Source: Fibrobacteria bacterium (lineage in GTDB: Bacteria; Fibrobacterota; Fibrobacteria; UBA11236). Taken from it: a stretch of 64,000 nt of DNA. Both the position numbers and the translations under genes were made by a program. The stretch is taken from positions 1 through 64,000 of the forward strand of contig JAYTHY010000042.1 in NCBI GenBank assembly GCA_043732185.1, written 5' to 3'. Below the pieces are notes generated by a model, which saw only the letters and a list, made by a program, of their open reading frames with translations, had not been told where the DNA came from and searched no databases. Within the stretch, counting starts at the first letter, position 1. Each line of letters begins with the position of its first letter. This document shows, one piece after another, positions 23,736 through 49,810 of this stretch.

Positions 23736-23751
23736 GGACGGGATATAACTC

Positions 23752-24537: not shown

Positions 24538-24543
24538 GCTGGG

Positions 24544-25554: not shown

Positions 25555-25568
25555 GAAATCCCGGGACT

Positions 25569-28954: not shown

Positions 28955-28960
28955 GAAGCC

Positions 28961-29218
28961 ATGCCGAACCGCAACATCCATATTGAAAACCTGAGGATTC
29001 ACTTGCCCTCTGACCAGGCTGGACGGGCCCATGAAATTGCGGATGCCTTCGGCAAGGAAATTCTGCATGCCCTCGCGAAATCGACTGAGGGGAAAATCGG
29101 GGCGCTGAATGTTGGTGCCATAGAAATACATACGCCGGACCTCCAGGCGAATGCACCGGAACGGCAAAAGTGGGCGGCGGGCCGGGTAGCAGATGCGCTT
29201 GTGGATAAAATCGGATAA
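28961..29218 (+). CDS. Small eCIS-associated hypothetical protein
   Basis: AGGA SD; IHIENLRIHL motif; lies between the ATPase and the tube initiator. Confidence 0.6.
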   Translation: MPNRNIHIENLRIHLPSDQAGRAHEIADAFGKEILHALAKSTEGKIGALNVGAIEIHTPDLQANAPERQKWAAGRVADALVDKIG

Positions 29219-29232
29219 AAAGGTAGGGACCG

Positions 29233-29895
29233 ATGGCTGGGCTTTTAATGCGGGGAGCGCTGATAGAATACGGATCGGACTTCATGGGTCCAATTCCCAA
29301 TGTTGTTATTTTCCAGTTCAATCCTGAAACGTTATCGCGTACTGTGCAGATACCGCCCCGACCGGCATCCGCCACCTCGCGTGAAACATCACAGGCCGGT
29401 CAGCCTTCCATCGAAAAAATCACTTTCAAAGCGGCTTTTTCCGCGGCAGACGAACTGGGCAAGAATAATCCATTGGCACGGGCATTCGGCGTAGGAACCC
29501 GGCTGGCTGCACTAGAAAAGATGGTCTATCCGGCCAATGAACTGCTGGCAGCCATTGGCGCCGCCCTGGGATTGGGTGCTGGCCCGAGTACCGGGGATCC
29601 GCGACAGTCTATTCCGCGCCAGAAAATGCCCCGCATCCTTTTCATTTGGGGTCCGTTAAAAGTGTTGCCCGTCCTATTGGAATCCATGACCATTACCGAA
29701 CAGCAGTATGATTTTCTGCTCAATCCAATTCAGGCCGAGGTGTCCATCACCCTGTCTGTCAACGCCGTAGACGCGTGTAGGGACGACATGATAGGAAAAG
29801 GCGCTCTATCCTATTCGAACATGGCGAAAGATGCGCAGGCGATGGCCAATTTGGTGAATACGGTGAGTCAAGTCGCGGAGATGATTCCGTTCTAA
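29233..29895 (+). CDS. CIS tube-initiator protein (Afp7 N-terminal-like)
   Basis: VVIFQFNPETLSR, LFIWGP..VLPV...MTITEQQYD..LNPIQAEV. Confidence 0.8.
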   Translation: MAGLLMRGALIEYGSDFMGPIPNVVIFQFNPETLSRTVQIPPRPASATSRETSQAGQPSIEKITFKAAFSAADELGKNNPLARAFGVGTRLAALEKMVYPANELLAAIGAALGLGAGPSTGDPRQSIPRQKMPRILFIWGPLKVLPVLLESMTITEQQYDFLLNPIQAEVSITLSVNAVDACRDDMIGKGALSYSNMAKDAQAMANLVNTVSQVAEMIPF

Positions 29896-29908
29896 CGGAG
29901 GAACACAT

Positions 29909-30208
29909 ATGTTTGATTCAAATTCACGTTATGCGCAAAGTCCGATTGTGGAAGTCGAGAGCAAAAAAGGAAAAGTAAGCGTCGTGAAGCTACGCCGCCT
30001 TCCGTTTGTTCCCGGAAACTTGACGGAGATAAAAGGCGCGGACCGCCTCGACATCCTTGCCCACCGTCGATTTGCGGACGGCACTAAATTCTGGCATATC
30101 GCAGACAGCAATACGGAGCTGGAGGCCAACGCCCTTGTGACCCAAAAGCCACCAGAGAATCCGCTGGCCAGGCAGGAAACGACTTTCATCCAAGTTTCGG
30201 AAACCTAA
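29909..30208 (+). CDS. LysM-like baseplate protein (Afp7 C-terminal-like)
   Basis: SNSRY; DRLDILAHR..D.TKFWHIADSN. Confidence 0.8.
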   Translation: MFDSNSRYAQSPIVEVESKKGKVSVVKLRRLPFVPGNLTEIKGADRLDILAHRRFADGTKFWHIADSNTELEANALVTQKPPENPLARQETTFIQVSET

Positions 30209-30211
30209 TCC

Positions 30212-31375
30212 ATGCAGGCCGAATTCAAAGTCTTTTACGCCGGTAAAGCCGCCACCAAAGAGCAACTTGACCGCATTGAGGAAATCGTTGTCGAGCAAGA
30301 AATAGACAAGGCTTGGGAAGCGCGCATCAAAATACCTGTTTGTATAGCTGAGGATGGATCTTGGGAAGGCGAAGACGATGCAGCCTACGCGGAATTCGCA
30401 CGCGTCCGGGTGGAGGCGCGGATTGGCGAAGGCGAATTCGTTCCCTTGATCGAAGGCAGCATCTGGGCCCAAGAGCCAGATTACAATGCCGGACCAGGAC
30501 TCAGCGCCGTCACCCTGATTGTCCACGACGATTCTAAAAAGCTCCATCGCAAAACCAAATCCGAATCCTACGCCGGCCAAGACGACGGCAAAGTGGTCCG
30601 ATCCATTTTCAGCGCAGCCGAGTTGGGGGAAGGGCCCGATGTCGACAATCCCCCAGCGGGTCCGGCTGGGCATGCCGTTCTCAATCAACCGGGCACGATG
30701 ATGGAAATGCTGCGCTCCATCGCCGACCGGTATGGAAATTACCATGCATACGTGCTTCCCGGTGCTACCGCAGGTAAGAGCAAAGGGTGCTTCAAGAAGC
30801 TTCCCACCAAACCGGATTCCGGATTGCCGATAGCATACTTAAGTGGACCGGATCGAAATCTCTCTGAGTTTCGGATTCAGAGAAATTCGGGTCGGGCGGC
30901 CAAAGTCGAAGGGGCGCATCTCGATATGAGTGATAAGAAGGTGACGACCGCCAGCGCGGGTCCCAACGACAACCTGTCTCCAAGTAACGAGGGCGCGACA
31001 ACGGGTCAAGCAGACGATTTGCGATTGCGTCGCCTGCAACCCGGAATCGGCGATCACACGGATCTCACCGAAGCCGTCAAAGGGATGGCGGAGGAGTCGG
31101 GCTATACGCTGAGTGCGGAGGGGAGCGTTATCCCGGGAGTTTTTAGCGCAATCCTCAGCCCATACAAGATGCTCGCGGTCCGACTTTCGAATAGCCGATA
31201 CAGCACCGGGTACGTGATCACCAAGGTTGTGCATACCCTGGGTATTTCACAATACAGCCAATCCTTCAATGTGATCGGAAACACAGTTTCAATTAAAAAC
31301 GGAGCAGGCCCGGATGTGCCACAGGCTTCCGCGTCCCTGACCGCATCATTCAACGTCCAAGTGAGCATATTCTGA
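30212..31375 (+). CDS. Baseplate hub protein (phage late control D/gp27-like; VgrG N-terminal part)
   Basis: Position between LysM and gp5-like genes; IEEIVVEQ...YSTGYVITKVVHTL pattern. Confidence 0.7.
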   Translation: MQAEFKVFYAGKAATKEQLDRIEEIVVEQEIDKAWEARIKIPVCIAEDGSWEGEDDAAYAEFARVRVEARIGEGEFVPLIEGSIWAQEPDYNAGPGLSAVTLIVHDDSKKLHRKTKSESYAGQDDGKVVRSIFSAAELGEGPDVDNPPAGPAGHAVLNQPGTMMEMLRSIADRYGNYHAYVLPGATAGKSKGCFKKLPTKPDSGLPIAYLSGPDRNLSEFRIQRNSGRAAKVEGAHLDMSDKKVTTASAGPNDNLSPSNEGATTGQADDLRLRRLQPGIGDHTDLTEAVKGMAEESGYTLSAEGSVIPGVFSAILSPYKMLAVRLSNSRYSTGYVITKVVHTLGISQYSQSFNVIGNTVSIKNGAGPDVPQASASLTASFNVQVSIF

Positions 31376-32016
31376 TGGATTCCGAAATCGAAAATCAATT
31401 GATCCACCTCTCCGAGTGGAGGAACCGCCAGGTTTTCGGAAAGTATCGCGGAACAGTGGAAACCGTCGAAACAGGTGACCTGCTCGGTTATATTTCCGTT
31501 AAGGTTCCGGATCTTTTTGGGGCGGATTTCATAGTCGAGAAAGTGCGACCCTGCTCGCCTTTCGCAGGAAACAAGCATGGCTTCGTCGCAATTCCTGAAC
31601 CGGGCGATGGCGTGTGGGTGGAATTCGAAGCGTGCAAGGCTTCGCTCCCGATTTGGACCGGCTTTTGGTGGGCGGACGATGAAATGCCGGAACCCAAGGG
31701 CCCCCTGGTCCGCAGTTTTATCACTACCAAGGGCCACAAACTGATTTTGAACGACGATGCGAATGAGGTCAAGTTACTGCATGCGGATGGCCCACAAATC
31801 ACCATGACCAATGGTGATATCACCTTAAAAATTGGTGATACAAGCATAAAAATGACATCCAGTGATCTCACCATGCAGGTGGGAGCATCGAAGACATCGC
31901 CTCACATCAAAATCACCTCGACTGAAATCAGCCTTCAGAGCAGCTCGGTCGGATCCGTGAAGCTCACTTCAGGTGGCGTCGACATTGGCAATGGGGCCAT
32001 GAAAGTGGGGGCTTGA
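31375..32016 (+). CDS. Spike protein (baseplate assembly V/gp5 OB-fold plus beta-helix)
   Basis: FGKYRGTV, GFVAIPEPGDGVWVEFE...PIWTGFWW, then short beta repeats; TGATG overlap with the upstream gene. Confidence 0.88.
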   Translation: MDSEIENQLIHLSEWRNRQVFGKYRGTVETVETGDLLGYISVKVPDLFGADFIVEKVRPCSPFAGNKHGFVAIPEPGDGVWVEFEACKASLPIWTGFWWADDEMPEPKGPLVRSFITTKGHKLILNDDANEVKLLHADGPQITMTNGDITLKIGDTSIKMTSSDLTMQVGASKTSPHIKITSTEISLQSSSVGSVKLTSGGVDIGNGAMKVGA

Positions 32017-32360: not shown

Positions 32361-32741
32361 ATGAAACTCCAGAACGGAAGACATCTCTCATTCCCTTTCC
32401 GCGTCGGCAACGACGGCAGGATGAAAACAGTCGGCACGTTAGATGAACATGTCCATGACGAACTCATCCAAACCATTCTCACGAATCAAGGTGAGAGGCC
32501 CTTCCTGGTTGATTTCGGGGCGGGCGTCCGCCGTCTCGTATTTGAGCCGGTGGATGAAACGGCCGGCGCCATCGCCAAGGCGACGATCACGCAAGCCATC
32601 AATCGTTGGCTCGGGCATCGGCTGGTCCTGGAATCCCTAAACGTCTCCGTCGAGGACTCCAAAATCATGGTGGATATCAAATACCGATTGGCCGGAACCG
32701 GTGACTCGCGTATGCTGCGCTTCCAACACAAAGGAACTTGA
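32361..32741 (+). CDS. GPW/gp25 baseplate protein (Afp9-like)
   Basis: LSFPFR, ILTNQGERP..DFGAG...LVFEP. Confidence 0.88.
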   Translation: MKLQNGRHLSFPFRVGNDGRMKTVGTLDEHVHDELIQTILTNQGERPFLVDFGAGVRRLVFEPVDETAGAIAKATITQAINRWLGHRLVLESLNVSVEDSKIMVDIKYRLAGTGDSRMLRFQHKGT

Positions 32742-32749
32742 CAGGTAAA

Positions 32750-35419
32750 ATGTTTAGCGAAATCGAAAAACCCCTGCGGGAACTGGCATTAAGTGAGCCG
32801 CTGATGGCGCGTGCCCGGCTGATGACCGGTGTCGTCCCTGCAAATGCGCCCAATGGCATCAAACTTGTGCGCGTCCTTTCGGTTGACAACCTCAAGAATG
32901 AAGCGTTGCTGGAAATGCATTTCTTCAATCTGAATCGACTGGCGGATATCGTTGCGGCCTATGCTGTGGATCGATCCGTGGCGAAAAAGATTTTTCCGAT
33001 TTCGGGAGGATCGCGCATACGTGCCGGAGCGGCCTTAGGGCAGGTACAAGTGGATGCCGCACCTTTACCCGCGCCCGCATCGATCGTCCTACCGTCCCCG
33101 ACTGTGCCTGTGTTGGTCCTGCGAGTGGCACCCATCGGAGATTATTCCACCTACACCATCGGGATAAGTGCGCTGCAAGCCTCCGGATGGGTTTTTGACC
33201 CGCTGTTCGCGGAAATTGGTTTCAAATTCCGGCCAGGCTGCTTCAACACCAATTGCGCACCCGGGTGGGACATGGCCATGCCGCCGTTGTCGGAGCCTTC
33301 CATCGATTATTTGGCAAAGGATTATGGATCCTTTCGTAAGACCATGATCGCTGCCATGATGGAGCGCGTTCCTGGATGGGAGCCAACTAGCGAAGGCGAT
33401 CTCGATATGGTCCTGGCCGAACTGTTCAGTGTGGCAGCCGATGAATTAAGCGACTTTCAAGATCGAGTGATGAACGAAGCCTACCTCGCATCCTCCCGTA
33501 AGCGCGTTTCCATCGCCAGGCATGCGCGATTAATGGATTACCATATTCATCAGGGGAACCAGGCGTCCACCTGGCTCGCGCTTGAGATCCTCCACTTTAC
33601 CGGGCCAACCCAATCGTTCCAGCTCAAGGAAGGACTCAAAGTTTGGGCGGGTGAATCCAATGCCACCACAGGAACGGAAATCGATACCTCTGTGCATTTC
33701 GTTTCCAGGCATGCAACCAAAACCGTTCATCAATATTTGAACAGCCTTGGACTCTACACTTGGAGCAATTCCATCACTACGCTCACAGCGGGGAGCACGC
33801 GGGCGGATGTAAAGGTATTTCAAAAGTATTACCTGGACGACACTGCAGGCGCCATTCCGGATTCCACAGAATCCGCCGCGAAGGCAGTCCAAGATCTGAT
33901 CCGGAACGGCAAAGTCAAGCACCTGCTTATTCAAGAGCACCTAAACCCGGAAACGGGATTTTTTGCCGGTCGCGATCCCAATAAACGACAATTGCTAAAC
34001 CTTATTTCCGGCCATGATTTGGCTACTGCCGCCACCGCGCTCCAAGATCCGGTTACCGGCGAATGGTTCATCCGCGTCCGCTGGGAAAAAAAAGATGCGT
34101 TACGGCGTGATTATTGTTTTCGGGTTGAATGTCCTGCAACGCACGCGGGCACGGCCATAGGGCCGGTCGACAACATTTCTCTTTTCCATGGAAATTTGAT
34201 CGAAGTTTTTCACGGGAAGGAAGGCGCGGCGCTTTTCAAAAACCCCGGCGAAATTCTGGGAGAAACCGAGCCGCTCCAATTTCATTATGAGCGAACCCGC
34301 TGGGGCGCGTTGTGCCGTTTGCCAGATGCGCCTCTGTTGTATCGCTATTCAGAGCCGGGCGGTGATGCCCCTCCGGTTTCCACTTTGGACCTCCAAATCA
34401 AGGACCCGGCACTGGGAACAGCCATACCTTGGTATGAAGTGCCCAGCTTCATTCATAGCGATGATTCCGCCAAGGGAGGGGATCATTTTGTCGTGGAAAC
34501 GGATGAAGCCAAGCGCAGCGTGATCCGTTTTGGGAATGGACGGAATGGCATGGAATTGTCCGACACGGCGGAAGTCACGGTCAAATACCAGTTTGGAGAA
34601 CCCGGAGAAGGCAATGTCGGCGCGGACAGCATCCTCTATTTCGATGCTGCCTCTGTGTCAGTGGATCCAAATATTCCTGTGCTTAACGTGTATAGCTGCT
34701 GGAATCCCTTCGATGTGACTAACGGCCGGGACCGGGAGCCTGTGGTGGAGATTCTCCGCCGGGTTCCGGAGGCCTATCGCCAACGGCAGCTTAGAGCCGT
34801 AACCCTGGCCGATTATGTTGCATGGGCTGAAGGTATAGAAGGTGTTTCTCGCGCGGCCGCTAAATACGCATGGACCGGCAGCTGGCGAACCGTGCGCATC
34901 ACAATAGATCCCATCGGTACCAATGTGCTTTCCGATAGTTTGCGGAAACAAGTCGAGGCGGAGTTAAATGCCATCCGATTGATCGGCGAGGACATCGAAG
35001 TGCGTCCACCTCGATTTGTGCCTCTGGAAATAAAAGTTGCCGTGTGCGCGACTCCTGAGGTTTGGCCGGAGGATATCCAGTTTGTTCTTGAGCAAGAGTT
35101 TTCTGACGGATGGACACCCGATGGCCGCATGGGATTTTTCCATCCCGATTTATGGACGTTTGGGCAGGCGCTGCATGCCAGCCAAATCATTGGTCGGGCG
35201 ATGTTGGTAAGTGGGGTGGAACATTTCCTGGCCAAAAAAGTGGGCCCGACAAGTACCGGACCCTTGATCAGCGTTTCGATCAAGCGTTGGAATTCGCCTT
35301 TTCCGCCGGTAGAATCGCTTACCCAGTTGGATCACAATGAAATCATCATGGTCCAAAACGATCCGGATCATATGGAGTTCGGCACAATCTCCTTCGAAAT
35401 CAAGGGAGGCAGGCGATGA
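32750..35419 (+). CDS. Baseplate J-like wedge protein 1 (Afp11-like)
   Basis: IDYLAKDYGSFR, QDRVMNEAYL.....RVSI.RHARL.DY, IRFGNG, RAVTLADY. Confidence 0.85.
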   Translation: MFSEIEKPLRELALSEPLMARARLMTGVVPANAPNGIKLVRVLSVDNLKNEALLEMHFFNLNRLADIVAAYAVDRSVAKKIFPISGGSRIRAGAALGQVQVDAAPLPAPASIVLPSPTVPVLVLRVAPIGDYSTYTIGISALQASGWVFDPLFAEIGFKFRPGCFNTNCAPGWDMAMPPLSEPSIDYLAKDYGSFRKTMIAAMMERVPGWEPTSEGDLDMVLAELFSVAADELSDFQDRVMNEAYLASSRKRVSIARHARLMDYHIHQGNQASTWLALEILHFTGPTQSFQLKEGLKVWAGESNATTGTEIDTSVHFVSRHATKTVHQYLNSLGLYTWSNSITTLTAGSTRADVKVFQKYYLDDTAGAIPDSTESAAKAVQDLIRNGKVKHLLIQEHLNPETGFFAGRDPNKRQLLNLISGHDLATAATALQDPVTGEWFIRVRWEKKDALRRDYCFRVECPATHAGTAIGPVDNISLFHGNLIEVFHGKEGAALFKNPGEILGETEPLQFHYERTRWGALCRLPDAPLLYRYSEPGGDAPPVSTLDLQIKDPALGTAIPWYEVPSFIHSDDSAKGGDHFVVETDEAKRSVIRFGNGRNGMELSDTAEVTVKYQFGEPGEGNVGADSILYFDAASVSVDPNIPVLNVYSCWNPFDVTNGRDREPVVEILRRVPEAYRQRQLRAVTLADYVAWAEGIEGVSRAAAKYAWTGSWRTVRITIDPIGTNVLSDSLRKQVEAELNAIRLIGEDIEVRPPRFVPLEIKVAVCATPEVWPEDIQFVLEQEFSDGWTPDGRMGFFHPDLWTFGQALHASQIIGRAMLVSGVEHFLAKKVGPTSTGPLISVSIKRWNSPFPPVESLTQLDHNEIIMVQNDPDHMEFGTISFEIKGGRR

Positions 35420-38400
35420 GCGATGTCGATAATGGCTGTGCCAACGAATGCGCGCTGCCCTTGCGGTTTCCGCAGCGGCCCGGGGAAAACCAGTTTGTGG
35501 CGCATGGCGCAGGATGTTCCTGCTGCCAGCCTGGGGCGAGCCTCACTTCCGACAATCGACCCGCCTTGCCGCATTTTAATTACCGTATCGGTACCTATGG
35601 AAGTATTCGCGAATGGCTCCTTCACCAGATAAACCAGGCGCCAAACCTGCGGAGATGGACCCATCGCTCGCCGGATGATCCTGGTATCGCTTTGCTGGAA
35701 GGCGCAGCCATACTGGGTGACATCCTCACATTCTATCAAGACACCTATGCCAACGAGGCTTATTTAAGAACCGCCAAATGGCGGGAAAGCATATCGGATC
35801 TGGTTCGACTGTTTGGATACAGGCTGTCCCCGGCCATTGGTGGTAAGGCTGTATTCGCATTCGAGATCAAAAAAGATGAGCCTGTGACGATACCCGCCGG
35901 GTTTCCTCTCAAGGCGTCTCTGGAAGGAGTGGATGCGCCCGCTGTCTTTGAAACCAACATAGAGTCGATTGCCTATCCCTGGCTCAGTCGCTTCAATTTG
36001 TTCCGGCCATTGGTGGACACGACTTTCGACGCGGAATTCGAAATCGAAATTCCGGAACAGCACCTTTCATTTGTGGAGATCAAGATTGGGGAACGACTGA
36101 TTCTCGGTGAAAGTGAATCTGTCTGGAGCAACCGGTCCTTGGAGCTGGAGAACGCGGACATGTATTTCGTCGAGGCCATTCGCGAATTGCACGGCACAAA
36201 AATATACCGGGTGAAAGGCAAGTTGAAGGATTGGTCGCCAAATAAAAACGTGTTTGCTTTGCGGATCGGTCGCACCTTTCATCATTTTGGACATAACGGC
36301 CCCGCCAAGATTATAAACTCTGCAAAACCCATCAAATCAATTTCCGCGGTGACGGTGGGATCCGGTTCAGGTTCGTCCAAAACCGTGAGCTCTTCGGAAA
36401 TTCCCTACTTAAGTGTTCCTTTCACAAGGCCCGTTACGGATGCGTCCGAGTACTATTCTGATTCCGCTTTGAGTCCCCCGGTGCGATACAGCGACTTTCC
36501 ATTGGAGATGGAAGTCCAGGATCTGATTGCAGGGGGACCGGTAGTCATCCAGGCCCGATTCGCTTTCCCCGGCATCCGCAATGTTTCGGAATATTCTGAA
36601 GCCAAGACACTGGTTCGTACACTGGAAAAAGTCGAACCCATGACCATGACCTGGGGCGGGCTCAGCGAATCGATAACCCGAATTCGCATCGAGGAACGTA
36701 TTTCCGATGCTGGGTTCTTGAATACCATTCCCGCCAATTTGTCCGTGGTGGCCGGGATGGAAGCGAGCCAAGCTGATACAGACGAGGAGAACGCTCGTGG
36801 CCTACTCGAAAGGGCCAATGCAGCGGCGGCTGCCGCCAAAGACGCAGCCGATGCCGCAGCCAAGGACGAGATCAGGGCCAAAGCGGAAGCCGCTGACCTA
36901 GCCGCCCGCGCCGATGCTGCGATCAACAAGGCTGCGGTTTTGACTTTGGCTTATTCGGTTGCGGCCGCTGCGTTGAAAGACGACACAACCGATGCCATGA
37001 CTAAAATAGCCGCCCAAAAAGCGGTTGACGCTTTGAATGCCGCCAATACATCTCAGCGTTCAACGAATGCTGCTGCCCTTGATGCTCAGAACCATCGTAA
37101 CTTTGCGGTTCACGCTAAAGATGTAACGGTAGGGGCTGATATCGCTGCGGCAATTGGTGTTGCGATCTTGGATCCGATTTGTGCTCCAATTGTTGCCGGA
37201 GTATCGATTGTGGCCACAACCCTAGCGGCCAATTCCGCCAATCAGGCAGAGTCCGTTTTGCACAATGTTAATGAGGCAAAAAAGGACGTTGACCTGGCGC
37301 AAATTGCCACGTCTGTTGCAAAAGTTGCAGCTGATAATGCTGCCAGTGCCGCCGCCGCCGATGCAGACGCGACGCGACGCGCAGAAGAGGCGAAGCAGGA
37401 GGCAAATAAAGCTAAGGAAGATGCTGACAAAGCAGTCGAAAAAGCGCTAAAGGCAAAGCAGGCAGCCCATGAAGCTGAGCGGATTGCCGAAGAGAGGGCC
37501 GCGCGGGCACACATTACTGCCAAGGCTGTCGAAGTTGCTGAGGAGGACGTTGCAGCCGCGGTTGATATCGCCCTCGAAAAAAATCGTATCAAGAATACCC
37601 GGATGTACATTGGGGACGCTTTGTTCCACGAAGTGACAAGTCCAAAGTTGCAAGTTAAAGCCGCCCGTTTGGAAACCTCAGAGGTTAAAGGCGCTACACT
37701 CAATTATTTCGGCACCGCGGATCAAGTGAAAGCGCTCTCCGGCCGCCAAATTCTACTGGAAAAAAAAGGTTCTCAGCCCGGTCTTTTAACCGTCGAACCC
37801 GTACTGGAAAATTTTCCCGCCAGCACCAAGGATTTTGCCATCCTGCGGAAGATCAGTCTATCAAGCGCGGTCGCATACGCCGATTTCCCGAACCTAAAAC
37901 CTGTGACTACTGTTTTCGGAAATGTAGTCGAGGCCGATGAAGGCAAAACACAACCTGAAGTGGTGATCGGAAGCGGGGATGCCACGCGCGTATTTCAGAA
38001 TTTTCAGGTTCCCAAAGCTCCGCTTACCTATCACATTGTCACGGAAAACAGCCCATCCGAAACACCAGCAGCGGAGGTCTACGTAGGTGGAAAGCTCTGG
38101 TCTAAGGTGGACAGCTTTTTCGGACACGCGTCAGAGGAGCGAATCTACATCGTCCGGGAGGATGCTGCGGGAAATAGTTGGGTGCAATTCGGTGATGGAA
38201 AAACGGGCGCGCGCCTGCCCAGTGGCTCGGATAACGTGACTGTTATCTATCGAACAGGAGCCGGAGCTTATGGAGCGTTGAAAGACGACTCCAAGGTTCA
38301 GGCTTTGGCCAAGCTCAAAAACTTGGACAAGGTGCAAATGCCTGGTGTAGCTACGGGCGGAGCGCCACCGGAGAACGGGGAGAATGCGCGGGAGGCCGCG

Positions 38401-39039
38401 CCGGGCAAGATTCAAAGCCTTGGCCGTATCGTCAGCCTAAAGGATTTTGAAGCGGAGGCGGCGGCTATTCCCGGCGTGACTTTAGCTTCTGCCGCTTGGG
38501 GGCTCGATGATAATGTTCCCGCCGTTATCGTGACGGTGCTCATGGACACCGGACGTAGCGCCGAAATTCAGGCTGTCCGCGATATTCTTGTTGCCTACAA
38601 TTCTTCGCGTGGTGCAGGACGCACGCCGATTCTCGTGAAGGAAGGCAAGCGAATGTATGTTACCCTCACCATTCGTTATGCGCTTCAAGCGGGCTTCCGC
38701 GCCGATTTAACCGAACCCATAATACGCGGTGCTTTGGGTGGGACTGCCGCATCCCCGGACAAGCAGGAAACTTCGGCGGGACTCTTCGGAATCAAGCGAC
38801 GGCGTTTTGGCGGCCGCGAATACGCCTCGTCCGTCGAAGGAACGATCCAAAATGTTCAGGGTGTTCTTTGGGCAAAGGCCATCACCTTTACAGCTCTAGG
38901 GGAGGCGGACGATCCGGAACCGCTGGCATTGCCGTCTGTAGCCGTCTTCTCCCCCATGGTTCCCTGTGATGCCGGTCACATTCTCAGCCTGTATGACAAG
39001 CATTTGTTCTTGACCGCGGTCAAGTCAAAGGAAAGCTGA
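35416..39039 (+). CDS. Baseplate J-like wedge protein 2 with a ~280-aa Ala-rich coiled-coil/hydrophobic insertion
   Basis: YRIGTY, DILTFYQDTYANEAYLRTA, GNVVEADEG, VQFGDGKTGARLPSG, RIVSLKDFE; insertion at about aa 448-727. Confidence 0.85.
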   Translation: MSDVDNGCANECALPLRFPQRPGENQFVAHGAGCSCCQPGASLTSDNRPALPHFNYRIGTYGSIREWLLHQINQAPNLRRWTHRSPDDPGIALLEGAAILGDILTFYQDTYANEAYLRTAKWRESISDLVRLFGYRLSPAIGGKAVFAFEIKKDEPVTIPAGFPLKASLEGVDAPAVFETNIESIAYPWLSRFNLFRPLVDTTFDAEFEIEIPEQHLSFVEIKIGERLILGESESVWSNRSLELENADMYFVEAIRELHGTKIYRVKGKLKDWSPNKNVFALRIGRTFHHFGHNGPAKIINSAKPIKSISAVTVGSGSGSSKTVSSSEIPYLSVPFTRPVTDASEYYSDSALSPPVRYSDFPLEMEVQDLIAGGPVVIQARFAFPGIRNVSEYSEAKTLVRTLEKVEPMTMTWGGLSESITRIRIEERISDAGFLNTIPANLSVVAGMEASQADTDEENARGLLERANAAAAAAKDAADAAAKDEIRAKAEAADLAARADAAINKAAVLTLAYSVAAAALKDDTTDAMTKIAAQKAVDALNAANTSQRSTNAAALDAQNHRNFAVHAKDVTVGADIAAAIGVAILDPICAPIVAGVSIVATTLAANSANQAESVLHNVNEAKKDVDLAQIATSVAKVAADNAASAAAADADATRRAEEAKQEANKAKEDADKAVEKALKAKQAAHEAERIAEERAARAHITAKAVEVAEEDVAAAVDIALEKNRIKNTRMYIGDALFHEVTSPKLQVKAARLETSEVKGATLNYFGTADQVKALSGRQILLEKKGSQPGLLTVEPVLENFPASTKDFAILRKISLSSAVAYADFPNLKPVTTVFGNVVEADEGKTQPEVVIGSGDATRVFQNFQVPKAPLTYHIVTENSPSETPAAEVYVGGKLWSKVDSFFGHASEERIYIVREDAAGNSWVQFGDGKTGARLPSGSDNVTVIYRTGAGAYGALKDDSKVQALAKLKNLDKVQMPGVATGGAPPENGENAREAAPGKIQSLGRIVSLKDFEAEAAAIPGVTLASAAWGLDDNVPAVIVTVLMDTGRSAEIQAVRDILVAYNSSRGAGRTPILVKEGKRMYVTLTIRYALQAGFRADLTEPIIRGALGGTAASPDKQETSAGLFGIKRRRFGGREYASSVEGTIQNVQGVLWAKAITFTALGEADDPEPLALPSVAVFSPMVPCDAGHILSLYDKHLFLTAVKSKES

Positions 39040-39040
39040 T

Positions 39041-41671
39041 ATGTCGGACGAAAAACGCGTGGAACTTTATCGTCGACTTCCGGAAATCTACCGGATCAAG
39101 GATGAAGGCCTGCCCGAAAAATATCTGCATGACGGAGAGCGAGTGGAGGCGTACCAGCTCCGCAGCTTTCTGGAACCGGTGGAGGGCATGTTTTCCGCCA
39201 TCCACGAAAATATTGAATCGCTCTATCATGATTTCTTCATCGAAACCTGCGATGAGTGGGTGGTTCCCTATATCGCCGATCTTTTAGGCACCACGCACCT
39301 TTCCGGAGATGCATGGACGCTGCGCGCCGATGTCGCCGACACCATTGCGCTACGCCGCCGCAAAGGAACGCTCGGAGCCGTCGAGCTCCTTGCCTTCATT
39401 TTGACAAAATGGGGCGTGCATTGCGTGGAGCTTCTGGAAAATCTGGTCTGGAATCAGCACCTCAACCATCAGCGTCCAGACGAAGGCGGAGCGCCACCTT
39501 ATGGCTTGCTCAAATTGTCTCGTGGGGCGCCCATCCGAGGCGGAACCGTGACGCTGCGCGATCCATCCTTGCTGGCCCAGCTAAACACCCCATTCGATCC
39601 CTTCGCCCATGTAGTTGATGTGCAGCCGCACGCTATCGGCCAGGTCCGCCATAACCTACCCAACCTGGCAGTCTACTTCTGGAGATTGAAAGAGTACCGG
39701 CTGAACGTCGTCAAACCCCGATCGAGATCGGTCATTCCTTCTCCCGGTGCTTCTCCCATCGTTCGCATCCATATCGATCCAGTGCCGATGAATACGCTCT
39801 CCGCGCCCTATGTCAAAAATAACAACCAGCCGGGAGGGCGCCCGGTAACTTTGTTCAATACCAATCGCTTTGACCTTTTTAACAGGAAGCGTACAGGTAT
39901 CGACAAACTCAATCTTTCGGCACTCAAACCACGGATCTCCACCGTGGACCAGGTCCCGGGGCCTATTCCGATGGAGCGATTGTCTGATTTGGAATTCGCC
40001 AAGCAGTATGATGCCTCGCTGGCTTCATCTACGCCGCAACCCTTGGAGACCTTTGCCGCTGCAGCGTTCACTGCGCCGCAAGAATATGTCGCTGTGGAAA
40101 CGTATGACGTGCTGAATCCGAATCTGAATGCGTTGGACATTTCCGATCAGGGTTTGCAATTGCATCTTCCCGACTCCATTTTTCCAGGCGAGGCGTGGCC
40201 CCATACATCCCTTCCGCGTTACTGGACCATTCGTGGAGAAAACCTCTGCGCCTGGGAAAGAGGCCTCAATCCGCCGCTCAAGGTTCGCGAAATCGCCATC
40301 GATCCTGAGCGGGGACGCATGTGCATGGGTGTCGCCGACGATGCCCAGGCTAAGGCGATTGTCGAGGATATGTTGGTGACCTTTACTTATGGTGCGGTCG
40401 GAGACGTCGGTGCACATCCCATTTCATATCCCGCTTTGCCCAAAGCCTTCAATCATGAAATGAACCCCTTGGTGATTTACAAATCCGTGAACCTGCGCCA
40501 AGGGCCGGACTTGCAACAGTCTTTGGAAGCTGCGCTCGTGGCCGCGCAGCAAAAAGTAGCTGCCGATCCGGAACTCTTTGGAAATGTCCCGATTGTTTTA
40601 GAGATAGTCGACAGTCGCACGCATAGGCTGGATATCGGCGCACTCCCAGCATCGGTCTTCGTTACGGAAGGTGGCGTACCCAGTATAAAATTGAATGCAC
40701 CCCTCATCATCCGCGCCGCAGACGGGCAGCGCCCAATACTTGAGCTGGTCCAACCACTCGCCTTTAGGCCTGCCAAATTAATCGGCACGAATGCGGCCCT
40801 TCAGGGTCAACTGGATGCCATGATGGGCAGTCTGTTCGTGCGCTTAGAAGGCCTGTATGTCGCACGGGAATTAAATTATCCAGCTGGTCTGCCGCTCATC
40901 AGTCGCGCTGCGCTGAACAAGTTGGAAATCTTGAATTGCACGCTTGATCCCGGTGGATTCATGCGCTTTAACCATACCCGCGCCCCGCTGTTGCCGGGCA
41001 TTAGGCTTTTTGAACCTTATGGATTTGAGGATCCCGCGGAGAAACTGGCCTTCAAGCAAACTCCAGAACTCATCATCCAGCGATCGGTTTGCGGCGCAGT
41101 TTTCACCGATCCCGGATACCGAATCTGCATCAACGATTCCATTCTCGATTCCGTCCCGGTTACACTTCAAGGTGGGGGTGGACAGCAGGATGTCTTCGCC
41201 CTCTCCGGAGCGACCGATCCGGCAAGCGGGTATGCCGGGCAAACGACTCTGAAAAATGTCACCTGCCTGGGAAGGGTACGGACCGCGAGTATCGACGGGA
41301 GTGGCGGCATTTTCAAGGGGTTTGTCGATGTTTATGATCCACAATCCGGTTGCCTAAAATATTGCTATTTCACGGATGACACGGTTGTTCCCGGTCCAGC
41401 GGACGGTGCGATAAACCGTTTGCCCCAACACTTTGCCTGCGTCAACGGAAAGGAAGCCCGACTGGTCTTTACCAGTGAGTGCTTCGGAAACGCTGCATAC
41501 TGTCAGCTCTCACTCGAATGTGATCCGGATATTCTGGAACGGGGAGTAGGCAACGATCAAATGGGTGCTTTCAATTTTCTGCGGGAAGCCCACAAGTGGG
41601 CCAATTTAAAAATCAGGTTTAGAGAATTCATGCCGGTAGGGATCAAACCGATTTTGATTCCGGTAACTTAG
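39041..41671 (+). CDS. Baseplate/tail protein I-like (Afp12-like) with large C-terminal domains
   Basis: LYRRLPEIYR..D, FIETCDEWVVPYIADL, RRRKGTL, IDPERGR, GAFNFL...REFMPVG. Confidence 0.75.
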   Translation: MSDEKRVELYRRLPEIYRIKDEGLPEKYLHDGERVEAYQLRSFLEPVEGMFSAIHENIESLYHDFFIETCDEWVVPYIADLLGTTHLSGDAWTLRADVADTIALRRRKGTLGAVELLAFILTKWGVHCVELLENLVWNQHLNHQRPDEGGAPPYGLLKLSRGAPIRGGTVTLRDPSLLAQLNTPFDPFAHVVDVQPHAIGQVRHNLPNLAVYFWRLKEYRLNVVKPRSRSVIPSPGASPIVRIHIDPVPMNTLSAPYVKNNNQPGGRPVTLFNTNRFDLFNRKRTGIDKLNLSALKPRISTVDQVPGPIPMERLSDLEFAKQYDASLASSTPQPLETFAAAAFTAPQEYVAVETYDVLNPNLNALDISDQGLQLHLPDSIFPGEAWPHTSLPRYWTIRGENLCAWERGLNPPLKVREIAIDPERGRMCMGVADDAQAKAIVEDMLVTFTYGAVGDVGAHPISYPALPKAFNHEMNPLVIYKSVNLRQGPDLQQSLEAALVAAQQKVAADPELFGNVPIVLEIVDSRTHRLDIGALPASVFVTEGGVPSIKLNAPLIIRAADGQRPILELVQPLAFRPAKLIGTNAALQGQLDAMMGSLFVRLEGLYVARELNYPAGLPLISRAALNKLEILNCTLDPGGFMRFNHTRAPLLPGIRLFEPYGFEDPAEKLAFKQTPELIIQRSVCGAVFTDPGYRICINDSILDSVPVTLQGGGGQQDVFALSGATDPASGYAGQTTLKNVTCLGRVRTASIDGSGGIFKGFVDVYDPQSGCLKYCYFTDDTVVPGPADGAINRLPQHFACVNGKEARLVFTSECFGNAAYCQLSLECDPDILERGVGNDQMGAFNFLREAHKWANLKIRFREFMPVGIKPILIPVT

Positions 41672-41684: not shown

Positions 41685-44600
41685 ATGAGAGGCGATTTTT
41701 CCACTTGGAACAAAGATGGATCTCGAAATTTTAGAGGCACCCTGCATCAACAAGGCCGGGTCCTGATCGATAGGGATTGGAACGCGCAAACCGAGATCAA
41801 CATTGAGTGGCAGCAAACTGCCGGACGCGATGCATTCGGTGCGGGTGTGGCCGCAGTTCCAGCGGAACTTCCGCAGGGCTTTAAGGTCACGGGCGCAAAA
41901 ATAGTTGGCAGTGATGTTTTGGTGGCCGTAAGCAAAGGGCGGGTTTGGGCGGACGGCCTGCTAGTAGAATCTCCCAAGGATATTTCCAATCGCATCGCCA
42001 GTTACCTGAACCTGCCCCCAAAGACATTGCCCAACCCGAATGCCGCTCCACGTGATGCCGTGATTCTGGAGTCCTGGCTGGAGGAGTTGAATCCATTCCA
42101 GGCCACGTCGCTGCTGATTGAACCCGCGCTTGGCGGTGTCGATACTACGGAACGTGTTCAAACCGCTTTTCGTTTTCGACTCTTCCGAATGGAGTCTGGC
42201 GACACGTGCGATTCGATTTTGCCAAAACTTGCGGACGATTTTTCGGCCAAAGGAAAACTTACCGTTAAACTAGATCCCTTCACGGATACCGGCGGTGATT
42301 GCCCGGTGGTGGAAAGCGGCGGGTATACGGGATTCGAGCATCGACTCTACCGCATTGAAATAGCCGAGACCGCCAAAGCCGGCGCCTGGTTCAAATGGTC
42401 TCAGTTCAACGGCGGATTGGTGGGCACAGGGGATTTCGACGCGCCAAGTAGAAAGGTTTCCATTCACGGGAACCTGAATGCGATTCTCCATTGCGGCGTA
42501 AGCGAGTTTTATTTCGAAGCCTTGGATTTGGATGACGCAACCGGCTACTGGCGCGTGGCCTATGCCGCCAAGGCCACTCTGGGACCGGATAACAAGCTCG
42601 CCTTGCCTACCCCGGCGCACCCGGACGAATTTCTAGGTCCCTATCCACCTGCTCCTGTCACGGGCAAGCGCTTTTTCCGACTCTGGAACGGCATTGAACC
42701 CATTGCCGATTATGTCACGGCCGAAAAAGATTTGCCAGACCTGGTTGGAATAAAATTGAAATTCGATACCACAGTAGCTGCAAAGTATACACCATCCGAT
42801 TTCTGGACCTTCCAGGTTCGAGCCGGTGAGATTGGAAATCCCGCAGTGTTGGTAGGCGATCCGGTTACCTTTGTAGGTGCGCCGCCGCAAGGCATTCTTT
42901 ATCACCGCGTGCCATTGGCAGAAATCATGTGGTCTGCCACCGGGGTGGACATCGAAGACTGTCGCCGCATTTTTCTGCCGCTTACCAAACTCAAAACCTG
43001 CTGCACGTATCGCGTAGGTGACGGTGTCCATTCCCACGGAGAATTCACACGGATCCAGGATGCGATCAACGCCCTCCCCAAATCGGAGGGGGGCGAAGTA
43101 TGCATTTTGCCTGGTGTCTACACAGAAAACATCGTCCTGGACGCGCCGCATAATCGCAACATCCTCCTGAAAGGTTGCGGCAAACGCACGGTCCTCCGCT
43201 CCGGCACGAAGGATCCGGTTATCCGCGTCCAATCGGGACAAAACATCCATATCGAATCGCTAGCGGTGGAAGCGAATGAAGATGGAATAGGGATTTTACT
43301 CAACGGCGAAGAAAAAACCGCGAGCAACGGAAACCGCGAAAAATATCTGAAAGATATCACCCTCTCCGAACTCTTCATAACGGCGGCAAAAGGTTCTGCC
43401 ATCAAGGCTTTTGTTGCCCAATGCTTGACTTTAAATGATTCCGTGATCCAGATCAAGGATGCGGAAACGCGGGAGATTGCGGTCTATTTGGCGGGTGATG
43501 ACATGCTCGTAAAAGGCTGCGAAATCCGAGTTGTTACCGAGCAACTGGCCAAACTCGGCGAAGCTACATCCAACGATCTGAATCATCTGTATCCCGCCAA
43601 AGGCGCACCAGGTGGGTTACAGATAGCCGGTGGGTCCGAACGCGTCCGTATTCTCGACAACTTGATCGTCAGTGGTACGCGAAACGGAATTACTTTGGGC
43701 AGCGTGGATCTGATCCGGCAAGGCCATTTGATCCGGAATCACATCCCCATCCACTGGATAGGCGAGCTCGAGGATTGCTGTAAGCCGGACGATGGCTTTG
43801 TGGACGACGGAAACACAACCGAAGATGGCAGCATTCCGGTAGCCGGACCACCGCTTGAAGATATTTTGATTCAGGCCAATCGTATTTTCAATATGGGCCG
43901 CAACGGGATTGGCGTGGTCACGTTCTTCAGTCTCGGCGACAAAACCGATCCGAAAGATGTGTCGGCCATCGGGAAGAATACTGAGAAAGGCGTGGTTTCC
44001 GTTTCCAAGTTGGTCATCTGCGAGAACCGGATCGAGCGCTGCTTGAATTCCAATCTCCAGGAAATTCCGGAAAAGTTCGGATCCCTAATGGGCTACGGCG
44101 GCATTTCCCTGGCGGATACCGAGGCCTTCGTGGTCCGGGATAATTTCATCATCGACAACGGTCCTGATTTTCTGGAACCGATTTGCGGGATTTTTGTGCT
44201 ATCGGGTCAAGGTATCGAGATATCGCGCAATCATATTCTGAACAACGGCATGCGAAACCAAAAGGAGTTGAACGCGAAAACCGTAAAGCGGGGGCCCCGT
44301 GGCGGCATTTACATAGCCATGGCGCGAACCTCGGGAATCGACGTCATTCCTGGTTCGGATCGGAGTATGTATTTCGCCAGCGGGTTTCCAGCGGCCAAGA
44401 TCCATGACAATTGTGTCACCGTTCCGCTGGGTAGAAGCCTGACCCTTATTGCAAATGGACCCGTGTCCGTCATCGGCAATCGGTTCACGAGCTTTGGTCT
44501 ACGCCCCATCAATTTCCTTTCGTTGATCCTATCGGTGGCCACGCAAGGCAGTCTGAAGGCCGAATTGTTATGGGACCTCATTGACTTGATTGCCGGAAAC

Positions 44601-45203
44601 ATCTTCATTTTCAATCAGGGAATGCTGGCTCTCATCCCAGCTATGGATCATGGATTTAAGAATATCCAATCAGGCACAGCTGCAAATGCCCAGGTGGAAA
44701 AAACTCCCGTTACCCTGAACGCTGTATCACTTCCAAAAAACCAGGTCCGTTATTTTGCTACGGGTACCGTTCTATTCACCAACAATCAATGTCACCAGAA
44801 CCTGGCCACACCGGCGCCATCCTTTGCATTATCATCGATATGTATCGCCAGTTTGGATGATGTAGGTTTTCACACGAATCAATGCGATTGCGATCTGGAT
44901 CAGGACTTTTTGATGGTCAATGCCTTTATATTTGGAATGACAGCAAGAATCAGTGATAACCGGTTTCGAGAATCTCTGATGAAAGTATTTTTTTCCGCCG
45001 CGACATTCGGAATGCAAGTTATCACTACAGACAACGAATCCATCCATTGCCTACTTGTACTGGGCACCGCCTACCTAAAACGACACAACCTGGTTCTGCT
45101 TGAAATCGGAACCATCAATGGCGACATAACCAAGGTGGATGGTCCGCATGTTTGCGACAATATTATGAAGTTGTTCAAAAATTTTGGCATCCCTAATAAA
45201 TAA
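41685..45203 (+). CDS. DUF6519-like tail fibre/spike with right-handed parallel beta-helix
   Basis: MRGDFS...QQGRVLIDRDWN, GYTGFEHRLYRIEI, DCRRIFLPL, IQDAINALP..GGEVCILPG, repeated I..N.I beta-helix turns. Confidence 0.75.
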   Translation: MRGDFSTWNKDGSRNFRGTLHQQGRVLIDRDWNAQTEINIEWQQTAGRDAFGAGVAAVPAELPQGFKVTGAKIVGSDVLVAVSKGRVWADGLLVESPKDISNRIASYLNLPPKTLPNPNAAPRDAVILESWLEELNPFQATSLLIEPALGGVDTTERVQTAFRFRLFRMESGDTCDSILPKLADDFSAKGKLTVKLDPFTDTGGDCPVVESGGYTGFEHRLYRIEIAETAKAGAWFKWSQFNGGLVGTGDFDAPSRKVSIHGNLNAILHCGVSEFYFEALDLDDATGYWRVAYAAKATLGPDNKLALPTPAHPDEFLGPYPPAPVTGKRFFRLWNGIEPIADYVTAEKDLPDLVGIKLKFDTTVAAKYTPSDFWTFQVRAGEIGNPAVLVGDPVTFVGAPPQGILYHRVPLAEIMWSATGVDIEDCRRIFLPLTKLKTCCTYRVGDGVHSHGEFTRIQDAINALPKSEGGEVCILPGVYTENIVLDAPHNRNILLKGCGKRTVLRSGTKDPVIRVQSGQNIHIESLAVEANEDGIGILLNGEEKTASNGNREKYLKDITLSELFITAAKGSAIKAFVAQCLTLNDSVIQIKDAETREIAVYLAGDDMLVKGCEIRVVTEQLAKLGEATSNDLNHLYPAKGAPGGLQIAGGSERVRILDNLIVSGTRNGITLGSVDLIRQGHLIRNHIPIHWIGELEDCCKPDDGFVDDGNTTEDGSIPVAGPPLEDILIQANRIFNMGRNGIGVVTFFSLGDKTDPKDVSAIGKNTEKGVVSVSKLVICENRIERCLNSNLQEIPEKFGSLMGYGGISLADTEAFVVRDNFIIDNGPDFLEPICGIFVLSGQGIEISRNHILNNGMRNQKELNAKTVKRGPRGGIYIAMARTSGIDVIPGSDRSMYFASGFPAAKIHDNCVTVPLGRSLTLIANGPVSVIGNRFTSFGLRPINFLSLILSVATQGSLKAELLWDLIDLIAGNIFIFNQGMLALIPAMDHGFKNIQSGTAANAQVEKTPVTLNAVSLPKNQVRYFATGTVLFTNNQCHQNLATPAPSFALSSICIASLDDVGFHTNQCDCDLDQDFLMVNAFIFGMTARISDNRFRESLMKVFFSAATFGMQVITTDNESIHCLLVLGTAYLKRHNLVLLEIGTINGDITKVDGPHVCDNIMKLFKNFGIPNK

Positions 45204-45221: not shown

Positions 45222-45911
45222 ATGAATATGGAAGCTAGACAAAAAATTACCGTCGAACAGGCTGCTTCGGAACTGGATCGGAGCATGGAGAGCCTGGATG
45301 AATTGCGCGCCGCGCACCTAGGGGAATCGCTCAAAGTAGAAGGCGCCAAAGGGAATGTGTATGTCCGCGAACACGCGCGTTTGCTAGGGAAATACGGTAA
45401 GGGCCATCCTCGCACTTTGGATATAGAGGCGCGAATGAAAGCCAATCAGATGTACCAGGCAGCTATCGTTACAGAATACCACAACGCGTCAACGCCGCGC
45501 CCCCAGCCCAGCAAGGGTTGGGCTTTGGACGGATTCGTCCGCTCAACCGATGGCCGGCCAGTGCATGGGGTGACGGTAGGTTTATACGATCGGGCGAATA
45601 TGTGGCAACAGAGTTTTGGACATGCCTGTACGGATAAGGACGGATATTTTTCCCTACGGGTTGATACGCTTCCGGAAAAACCGACCAGCCCATTATTCGT
45701 GCGGGCCGCCAAGGAAAGGCGGATCCTCCCATCCCGTGATTTGCCCGTGCTCCCCAAAGCCGGTGCCACCAAAAGAGTGGAAATTATTTTGGGGGAACAG
45801 AATGATAAGAAAGAGGATTGCCTGCCGCCGGACGGGCAAATTACTCCGATGTCTACGCCTCCTGAGATCCAAGAAAACGAAAAGCCCGCTACCAAGAAAA
45901 ATCGCAAATGA
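45222..45911 (+). CDS. Hypothetical protein with helical N-terminus and carboxypeptidase-regulatory-like beta-sandwich
   Basis: GAGG SD; LDGFVRSTDGRPVHGVTVGLYD...TDKDGYF. Confidence 0.6.
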   Translation: MNMEARQKITVEQAASELDRSMESLDELRAAHLGESLKVEGAKGNVYVREHARLLGKYGKGHPRTLDIEARMKANQMYQAAIVTEYHNASTPRPQPSKGWALDGFVRSTDGRPVHGVTVGLYDRANMWQQSFGHACTDKDGYFSLRVDTLPEKPTSPLFVRAAKERRILPSRDLPVLPKAGATKRVEIILGEQNDKKEDCLPPDGQITPMSTPPEIQENEKPATKKNRK

Positions 45912-45921
45912 ATCCGGAGCC

Positions 45922-48285: not shown

Positions 48286-48315
48286 GTTCACTTGGAGGGG
48301 AGAGGTAAACGGCCT

Positions 48316-49794: not shown

Positions 49795-49810
49795 CTGGAG
49801 AGACCCTACA

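Follow-up and report, generated by a model that had tools for sequence, protein, structure and literature searches.

A helical hairpin rod with an exchangeable apolar tip, predicted within a baseplate wedge subunit of a chromosomal contractile injection system from a Fibrobacteria bacterium

The stretch of DNA analysed here, called the window below, comprises the first 64,000 nucleotides of contig JAYTHY010000042.1 from the Fibrobacteria bacterium assembly GCA_043732185.1. It is a segment of a bacterial chromosome and carries the genes of ClpP, ClpX, Lon and DivIVA; its nearest named match is a Fibrobacteria metagenome-assembled genome record, denoted L001. As delimited by Pfam matches, an operon encoding a contractile injection system (CIS) spans positions 20790 to 53032 of the window. 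Its second gp6/Baseplate-J-like gene, cis11b (35416..39039, forward strand; recognised from the open reading frame (ORF), PHROG 219 and fold), encodes a protein of 1207 aa, P0001, and a helical insertion of ~290 aa sits in one surface loop of the beta-rich middle region of this protein (aa 441-727, 36736..37596, forward strand). In this work, we describe the insertion as a predicted hairpin rod that consists of a stalk of fixed length and an exchangeable distal half with an apolar tip, and we tentatively propose that it may serve as a contact leg of the baseplate.

The core, wedge, fibre-position and cargo genes of the operon lie on the forward strand. The core (20790..32016) comprises, according to Pfam, the sheath, a gp19-type tube, a Pvc16-like cap, an AAA ATPase, a tube-like protein and a VgrG-like (Phage_base_V) spike. 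It is followed by small PAAR-like and gp25-like ORFs, found by a three-frame reading of 32016-32738, and by the paralogous wedge subunit Cis11a (32738..35419, 893 aa), which is without the insertion and matches Pfam Baseplate_J (E 4.5e-9) as well as PHROG 6 and 219. The start of cis11b (35416) overlaps the stop of cis11a (35419), and a Tail_P2_I-like wedge subunit gene (Cis12-like, 39041..41671) begins 2 nt past the cis11b stop; the latter was assigned from synteny and a weak Pfam match (E 0.0043, below the curated cut-off). The tail-fibre position is occupied by a DUF6519/right-handed beta-helix protein (41685..45203; DUF6519 3.3e-9, Beta_helix 7.6e-6), for which a PDB sequence search returned 0 matches and which has no hydrophobic segment, the maximum of the Kyte-Doolittle average over 19 residues (KD19) being 1.59. 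The operon ends with three cargo-type proteins of 889, 500 and 1110 aa (45616..53032) with eCIS_core (DUF4157) domains (PF13699, E 2e-28 to 5e-31), of which the last terminates in a C-terminal AHH (HNH/EndoVII) nuclease domain (E 1e-11). All three are probably cargo toxins of the CIS.

The same gene order is shared by related loci (L002-L010) of Betaproteobacteria, Acidobacteriota and Verrucomicrobiota: Cis11a is followed by Cis11b in 9/9 of them, and Cis12 comes next in all seven whose contigs extend that far. Within the phylum of the host the system is sporadic, with any match in 6/201 sampled genomes and full-length ones only in two (G000 and G078). Several other peculiarities of the locus were observed. 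The sheath protein (20790-23195) is unusually long, 801 aa, and its Pfam sheath domains are confined to the C-terminal ~270 residues, which implies, at the level of domain annotation, large extra domains in this protein. The true starts of the cargo genes are uncertain due to overlapping ORF calls (45222-45911 with 45616-48285, and 48292-49794 with 49700-53032). Outside the operon, a GH95 glycoside hydrolase with a Por_Secre_tail sorting domain of the type IX secretion system (10452-12908) fits a diderm host of the Fibrobacteres-Chlorobi-Bacteroidetes group.

An initial annotation, made from the letters of the DNA alone, had described the insertion as residing in a baseplate wedge protein, the sequence of which resumes on both sides. 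This description proved correct. Although a Pfam-A search of P0001 gave no match at E<=0.01, Baseplate_J included, PHROG 219 ('baseplate wedge subunit') matched aa 824-1029 with an E-value of 2.3e-18, and a profile built from 79 homologues reached phage gp6 (9f4a_AX, E 7e-4). The AlphaFold2 model of aa 8-1207 (mean pLDDT 77) was matched best by Foldseek to the Streptomyces CIS baseplate (9gtp_1G, E 7.8e-15), followed by gp6 of phage KP1 (1.1e-13), the baseplate chains of phage P1 (BplA; 9vzk_T, 1.3e-12, and 9ay5_0, 2.8e-11) and T4 gp6 (1.7e-11); further matches included Anabaena 7b5h_AH (4.6e-10), TssF (8.3e-5), AlgoCIS 7aeb_G and PVC. Among the viral structures of BFVD there were 109 matches with E<=0.001, and the 50 listed were nearly all baseplate wedge or J proteins, or unnamed. 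The best of these, A0A6J5L595 ('Baseplate protein J-like' of an uncultured Caudovirales phage; E 1.2e-23 over 1446 alignment columns), has 1168 aa and is thus near P0001 in size; this entry could be a wedge protein of phage origin that likewise bears insertions of such size. In the alignment of homologues, two conserved anchor columns that flank the insertion are separated by 326 residues in P0001 and by 35 in homologues of ~913 aa. By profile and predicted fold, P0001 is therefore the second gp6/J-like wedge subunit of a chromosomal CIS. Two J-like genes together with a P2-I-like gene fit the (gp6)2-gp7 stoichiometry of the wedge. In the Streptomyces CIS each wedge contains two Cis11 and one Cis12 (PMC12237407), and haloarchaeal clusters likewise have two cis11 genes (PMC11566945).

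The structure of the insertion was predicted by AlphaFold2 twice, for aa 401-790 with an alignment of the 14 homologues that carry it and for aa 8-1207 with an alignment of 79 sequences. Both runs agreed on helices at aa 441-520, 524-583 and 591-738. The first is separated from the second by a break at KDD (521-523), the chain turns around ILDPICA, and a single long helix then returns to ~725-738. The pLDDT exceeded 90 in the proximal arms and fell below 50 at the tip in both models. The insertion is hence predicted to be an antiparallel two-helix hairpin rod of ~20 nm, the proximal half with confidence and the tip without it. The arms thus pair in the models, as had been anticipated; the length of ~18 nm initially estimated is better put at ~20-21 nm, since each arm contains ~140 residues. 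The arms had also been described as rich in Ala, Glu and Lys, which fits the second one (aa 606-727: 31% Ala, 12.3% Glu, 10.7% Lys); the first is equally an Ala-rich helix, yet its prevailing charged residue is Asp (aa 448-569: 36% Ala, 10.7% Asp, 6.6% Lys, 4.9% Glu). Proline is absent from the four arm segments (248 aa), which contain 2 Gly, while the tip holds 2 Pro and 3 Gly. Of the proposed coiled coil, the pairing of the arms is seen in the models. A simple Fourier test for heptad (3.5-residue) periodicity was significant in one of the four arm segments (C-proximal arm, z 2.9, p 0.0055), with z of 0.5-1.6 in the other three, so that 'helical hairpin' is a safer label than 'canonical coiled coil'. 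A weak match of the second arm to a PHROG 'tail fiber protein' (E 1.6e-4) was put down to coiled-coil composition, and two minus-strand ORFs opposite the Ala-rich arms (36453-36929, 158 aa, and 37242-37703, 153 aa) were regarded as by-products of GCN-rich coding rather than genes.

Searches with the predicted fold retrieved antiparallel hairpins from various proteins. Foldseek aligned the insertion with a chemoreceptor cytoplasmic domain (9a65_A, TMq 0.53, root-mean-square deviation (rmsd) 5.6 over 311 columns), and VIA-align with the receptor-binding hairpin (R-domain) of colicin E3 (Z 12.8, rmsd 2.0 Å, 139 aa). Other matches of the two programmes were SMC and MukB arms, MacA and AcrA hairpins, and TcA channel helices. 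We consider all of these to be analogies and not relatives, because long helices can reach such scores by shape alone.

Comparison of the carriers of the insertion revealed that the rod is modular. The proximal N-arm (aa 441-520, 36736..36975, forward strand as all parts of the rod; pLDDT >90 over ~aa 450-500) leads to an LKDD motif (aa 519-522, 36970..36981) that is conserved among carriers and coincides with the modelled break; the spacing from a conserved WGG to LKDD is 102-105 aa in all 13 carriers in which the anchor could be located. On the return strand, an AAAADADA motif (aa 645-652, 37348..37371) precedes the proximal C-arm (aa 648-727, 37357..37596; pLDDT >90 over ~aa 670-720), and in 14/14 carriers exactly 79 aa separate the Asp of the underlying A-A-x-x-D-A-x-A motif from the downstream TRMY motif, at which the core is rejoined. 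The interval between LKDD and AAAADADA, on the other hand, varies from 122 to 144 aa. With the apex placed at aa ~587, the two motifs would stand opposite each other ~12 nm up the rod, at the modelled helix break. The rod is thus composed of a proximal stalk of fixed length (~79 residues per arm) and, beyond a junction or hinge that is conserved, a distal module that varies (~aa 523-646, 36981..~37352). The distal module includes the distal halves of both arms and the apolar tip (aa 570-605, 37123..37230). The insertion site itself is not the only variable one: at P0001 ~312-349 and ~385-390, subsets of homologues have Ser/Gln/Gly-rich or Pro/Thr-rich insertions of 25-82 aa. As judged from the alignment, the beta-rich middle region of the wedge protein behaves as an insertion hot spot.

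The boundaries of the distal module also emerged from comparison with L001, the product of which is identical to homologue P0002 over its 1017 residues. The DNA of cis11b and L001 is 96-100% identical over most of the gene, with a few 90-nt windows lower (89% and 90-93%), whereas the identity is only 24-64% from 36981 to ~37352, exactly from LKD to AAAADADA, where it recovers. LKDD and AAAADADA accordingly mark the 5' and 3' breakpoints of a cassette. At the protein level, P0001 and P0002 share 98% of the core and 93% of the proximal arms but 36% of the distal module, and the distal modules nearest to that of P0001 (44-46%) belong to P0003, P0005 and P0007, the cores of which are only 57-60% identical to it. 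A second pair of this kind is formed by P0007 and P0009, with core and cassette identities of 85% and 39%; the cassettes nearest to theirs are found in P0003 (64%) and P0008 (72%), respectively. Two short tracts outside the main cassette (35812-35853 and 36763-36797) are also less than 80% identical to L001 in 30-nt windows and may represent a micro-mosaic. A BLAST search of the own genome (4.46 Mb in 139 contigs, 100% complete by markers) with 36757-37596 found only the query itself, the next match having an E-value of 0.5. Variation from silent cassettes or a diversity-generating retroelement was rejected on this ground, and the comparison of sequences indicates allelic replacement: genes that are nearly identical elsewhere have exchanged their distal modules by recombination.

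The P0001 allele is not an artefact of assembly, because contigs from three further sequencing runs (X3, X5 and X6, from three studies, two of which differ from the likely source study) bridge the hairpin; one of the bridging contigs is 1813 nt long and covers 35992-37804 with 59 differences. Within the tip, the differences listed for related strains are two synonymous changes (37161 and 37170) and one that converts Ala583 to Val (37163). The allele is maintained in runs of at least three studies, and the changes in its tip are conservative. Runs sharing ~0.6 of words, which had been expected to hold another cassette, contained the same one with ~3% single-nucleotide polymorphisms, and a metagenome scan for close relatives yielded four loci, none of them near-identical, and no further swap pairs.

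The survey of homologues covered the best 120 of 939. Fourteen of them carry the insertion at the same site, and 100 have neither this nor another helical insertion; the rarity supposed at the outset was thereby supported, and the figure of 14/120 even overstates the frequency, as the top of the match list is enriched for carriers. Among ten related genome loci, two are carriers; in the other eight, the gene set is unchanged along the available length of the contigs. In P0077 and P0075, the site is occupied by short insertions, of 43 and 57 aa respectively, that are unrelated to the hairpin. Searches with aa 440-740 added little: phmmer against 1.84 billion cluster representatives found only P0004, which represents the same family, a word-indexed search, limited by low complexity, found four proteins, all known carriers, and the ESM Atlas gave no usable match. 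Six homologues (P0016, P0025, P0060, P0073, P0074 and P0079) contain a second helical insertion of 409-433 aa at P0001 position ~237-239, which is monophyletic, contains 21-27% Ala and has central apolar stretches centred on Gly/Pro. This insertion lies at another loop, is of independent origin and is unrelated to the hairpin. In one further homologue, P0019 (1260 aa), the C-terminal 91 residues are similar to the beginning of the Cis12-like protein encoded downstream of cis11b in the window; the extension is probably a frameshift or read-through fusion of adjacent genes in the metagenomic record.

To follow the history of the module, a core tree was built from 896 columns, with the insertion columns left out by occupancy. 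The carriers required six changes on this tree and the second insertion type one. Forcing the carriers into one clade in a maximum-likelihood tree of 44 rows cost 247 log-likelihood units and was rejected by the approximately unbiased test (p-AU 0.0002). P0010, for example, is nested among short forms with local support of 97-99. A long-branch join of P0001/P0002 with P0046 was flagged in the tree. As the carriers are distributed against the core phylogeny, the module has undergone either repeated loss or recombinational transfer from gene to gene. The junction motifs are kept across proteins only 53-61% identical in their cores.

These data bear on the simplest explanation, according to which the hairpin is a near-neutral, low-complexity expansion, that is, an Ala-rich helical insertion tolerated in an exposed loop without specific function. 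The composition, the weak heptad signal in three of the four arm segments, the majority of homologues that do without the insertion and the low-complexity insertions in other loops of the family would all fit such an origin. Against this, the length of the arms is strictly conserved, the junction motifs have outlasted the divergence of the cores, the open frame and the tip are maintained by synonymous or conservative changes in strains of several studies, and there was an independent origin of another helical module that also has an apolar centre; we consider this explanation very unlikely. Another possibility is that the rod is a purely structural strut or cage without a membrane role: six rods would surround the spike, extend beyond it or run along the sheath as a spacer, protective cage or stabiliser, their apolar tips packed against each other or another subunit. 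The invariant length of the proximal stalk is what one expects of a structural element, the insertion site is one of several variable loops in the middle region, and Cis11 insertions that form a spike cage are known in AlgoCIS, the metamorphosis-associated contractile structures (MACs), the subtype iv type VI secretion system (T6SS-iv), Anabaena and Salmonella systems. A packing element, though, would not be expected to tolerate wholesale distal replacement and a length variation of 122-144 aa, and the module is dispensable in most of the family, so we regard the strut as unlikely, too. Both explanations agree less well with the fixed stalk, the conserved junctions and the swapped end.

The remaining explanations depend on the properties of the tip. 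As initially noted, it is an apolar segment of ~36 aa with a central Asp-Pro turn; it is rich in Ala, Val and Ile, its two charged residues are both Asp, and the models do not bury it within a soluble fold. Its KD19 maximum is 2.15, and in a scan of 37 ORFs of the window it was the only segment of the CIS cluster proteins (20790-53032) with a value above 1.8, which was also exceeded by two unrelated upstream ORFs. The Kyte-Doolittle scale rates Ala highly. On the Hessa and Wimley-White octanol (WW-octanol) scales, for which approximate values were used, the tip proved marginally hydrophobic: the best 19-mer had a Hessa value of +4.04 kcal/mol and the WW-octanol value was -1.26 (aa 588-605), as compared with -3.57 and -12.9 for a membrane or signal segment in ORF 7758 of the window and +1.47 and -8.3 for one in ORF 13744. 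The apolar halves of the tip, 16 and 18 residues long, include Asp575, Asp586, Pro587 and Pro591. By these stricter, approximate scales the tip of P0001 is a marginal transmembrane candidate. Even so, it is the most apolar of the 14 carriers over 30 residues (Kyte-Doolittle 2.01, next 1.5). All 14 carrier tips hold a 12-aa window with a Kyte-Doolittle value of 1.67-2.45, and most are broken by Asp and often by a DP or aromatic-DP motif, several having three or four Asp. Membrane-grade values occur in the aromatic tip of P0010 (WW-octanol -12.9) and in an apolar stretch of the second insertion type, P0074 (Hessa +0.38), again on approximate scales. What recurs is thus a helical stalk crowned by an apolar apex rather than a transmembrane hairpin of uniform type. 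Type III secretion system translocators and alpha-pore-forming toxins did not appear in the Pfam, PHROG, PDB-sequence or fold searches, except for generic long-helix matches to TcA.

The apolar tip could also enter the inner membrane of the producer from the cytoplasm, as a hairpin or a re-entrant loop. Such a tether would hold, or transiently dock, the baseplate ~20 nm from the membrane, as a built-in equivalent of separate anchors like CisA, and would provide T6SS-like or lysis-linked firing without TssJLM. Several facts speak for it: the tip stands alone in the CIS cluster in its KD19 value; the best structural match of P0001 is the cytoplasmic CIS of Streptomyces, in which CisA is predicted to bind a peripheral Cis11 (PMC12237407); the Anabaena system is anchored through a helical stalk that ends in a transmembrane helix, on Cis13 (PMC8894136); the cage site of Alg11 homologues fixes T6SS-iv to the inner membrane (PMC8894135); and the tips of the relatives P0010 and P0074 are strongly hydrophobic on the approximate scales. 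On the other side, the short halves of the P0001 tip are interrupted by Asp and Pro, its best 19-mer has a less favourable Hessa value than two genuine membrane segments in the window, its flanks show little positive-inside bias, and the hydrophobicity of the tip is not conserved among the 14 carriers. Moreover, it is not obvious why near-identical strains should exchange the cassette of a constant anchor, and most homologues and related loci, the latter with the same gene set, lack the hairpin. We therefore consider a producer-side tether somewhat unlikely, yet a serious alternative.

From these results, a tentative proposal regarding the function of the rod may be put forward, which we favour while holding it with less than even confidence: the rod may be a contact leg that can be exchanged and that most likely faces the target. 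One rod would project from each of the six wedges as a leg or antenna, and contact would be made by the exchangeable apex, most likely on the side of the target, where it would dip into, or bind to, a bilayer interface or a hydrophobic surface. The rod might thereby act as a secondary attachment or a firing trigger beside the beta-helix fibre protein, analogous to the second binding step proposed for the AlgoCIS Alg11 cage. Given the Ala/Val/Ile-rich composition of the P0001 tip, an interfacial or re-entrant placement is more likely than a stable membrane-spanning hairpin. We favour a contact leg for four reasons. Receptor-binding modules behave in just this way, being exchanged wholesale between genes that are otherwise almost the same, and a swapped distal half favours a role in specificity or contact over that of a constant anchor; the tip is widely variable, and that of the P0001 allele is but marginally suited to span a membrane; the beta-helix fibre-like protein and the DUF4157 cargo resemble those of extracellular systems; and the Cis11 insertions of AlgoCIS form a cage proposed as a second-receptor binder and firing gate.

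A number of considerations weigh against the contact leg. Of the solved baseplates, the nearest belongs to the cytoplasmic CIS of Streptomyces, the firing of which needs a membrane protein predicted to dock on Cis11, and this fits the producer-side tether; so do the transmembrane-grade tips of some relatives (P0010 and, of the second type, P0074). The colicin match has a score that the mere arrangement of long helices can attain, and the pLDDT of the tip is below 50. Finally, a cassette swap attests recombination and is not proof of selection for new specificity, and the clear pairs are two. A bolder version, possible but in our opinion doubtful, is that the CIS uses six swappable legs, the apolar tips of which resemble fusion loops, to take direct hold of a lipid bilayer, be it that of the target or the inner membrane of the producer, without a protein receptor or a separate membrane complex; exchange of the ~125-aa distal cassette would then retune the grip, and the solution would have evolved twice in the wedge family.

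As to how a CIS is assigned to a free, membrane-anchored or cytoplasmic mode and how it recognises its target, the answers so far are tail fibres, Cis12/Cis13 extensions, beta-rich Cis11 cages and separate membrane proteins. A self-contained helical module with a fixed stalk and an exchangeable tip in a wedge subunit would be a new route of anchoring or targeting. The LKDD and AAAADADA motifs offer clean natural junctions for domain swaps in an environmental, non-pathogenic system, and the 14 carriers, the 100 homologues with neither helical insertion and the six carriers of the second module type form a comparative set.

Among the known systems, colicins E3 and Ia resemble the rod in having a long antiparallel two-helix receptor-binding hairpin. 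The apex of the colicin hairpin binds a cell-surface receptor, and the R-domains are modular and exchanged by recombination. Colicins nevertheless have no sequence relationship to P0001, and their tips are polar protein-binding loops. Long helices with an apolar hairpin are also found in phage tape-measure proteins, the tape-measure-related CIS cargo Sle1, TcA and alpha-pore-forming toxins; in the cargo, a coiled coil with a transmembrane helical hairpin enters the membrane after delivery (PMC13277306). These are tube-lumen cargo or free toxin complexes, not wedge subunits, and show no sequence or specific fold match to the rod.

Closer parallels exist among CIS baseplates. In Anabaena, a helical stalk extends from the baseplate of the thylakoid CIS and ends in a hydrophobic element, which there reaches the membrane. 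The initial annotation attributed the membrane anchoring of this system to a baseplate extension, which needs to be specified: the tail-fibre-like Cis13 provides the anchor with its C-terminal transmembrane helix, together with an amphipathic extension of Cis12 (PMC8894136), and no extension of a Cis11/J-like protein is involved; the carrier is the trimeric Cis13 with a single terminal helix, whereas P0001 has an internal hairpin in a J-like wedge subunit. An anchor of the Anabaena type was not found in the fibre-position protein of the window (41685..45203, KD19 maximum 1.59), as judged on hydrophobicity only. The Streptomyces CIS (CIS-Sc) is similar in its core, 9gtp_1G being the best structural match, and in its two Cis11-type subunits per wedge, a peripheral one of which is the proposed docking point for membrane association and firing (PMC12237407). 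It differs in that one cis11 gene is used twice, there is no tail fibre and CisA is a separate bitopic protein, whereas the locus described here has a pair of paralogous genes, one of which incorporates the candidate membrane element. Other links of CIS to membranes are a six-helix membrane protein in haloarchaea (PMC11566945), the cage site of T6SS-iv (PMC8894135) and SalCis19 in Salmonella.

A further close parallel is domain IV of AlgoCIS Alg11, which forms the spike cage (also in MACs, T6SS-iv, Anabaena Cis11 and SalCIS) and is likewise a large, optional mid-chain insertion in a gp6/J-like protein. The Alg11 cage is described as an evolutionary hot spot, and its proposed roles are the binding of a secondary receptor, the gating of firing or attachment to a membrane (PMC8894135, PMC13314943). 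It consists of beta-rich domains similar to carbohydrate-binding modules (residues 278-643), whereas in P0001 two helices form a rod, the distal module of which can be exchanged and bears an apolar apex. In the full texts searched, with supplements such as the conservation table of PMC8894136 outside the search, no helical hairpin and no transmembrane or other hydrophobic element is described inside a Cis11/J-like wedge protein. In comparison with these systems, the rod of P0001 is a new form of the known theme of baseplate extensions, and its modular anatomy and the exchange of its distal half are new.

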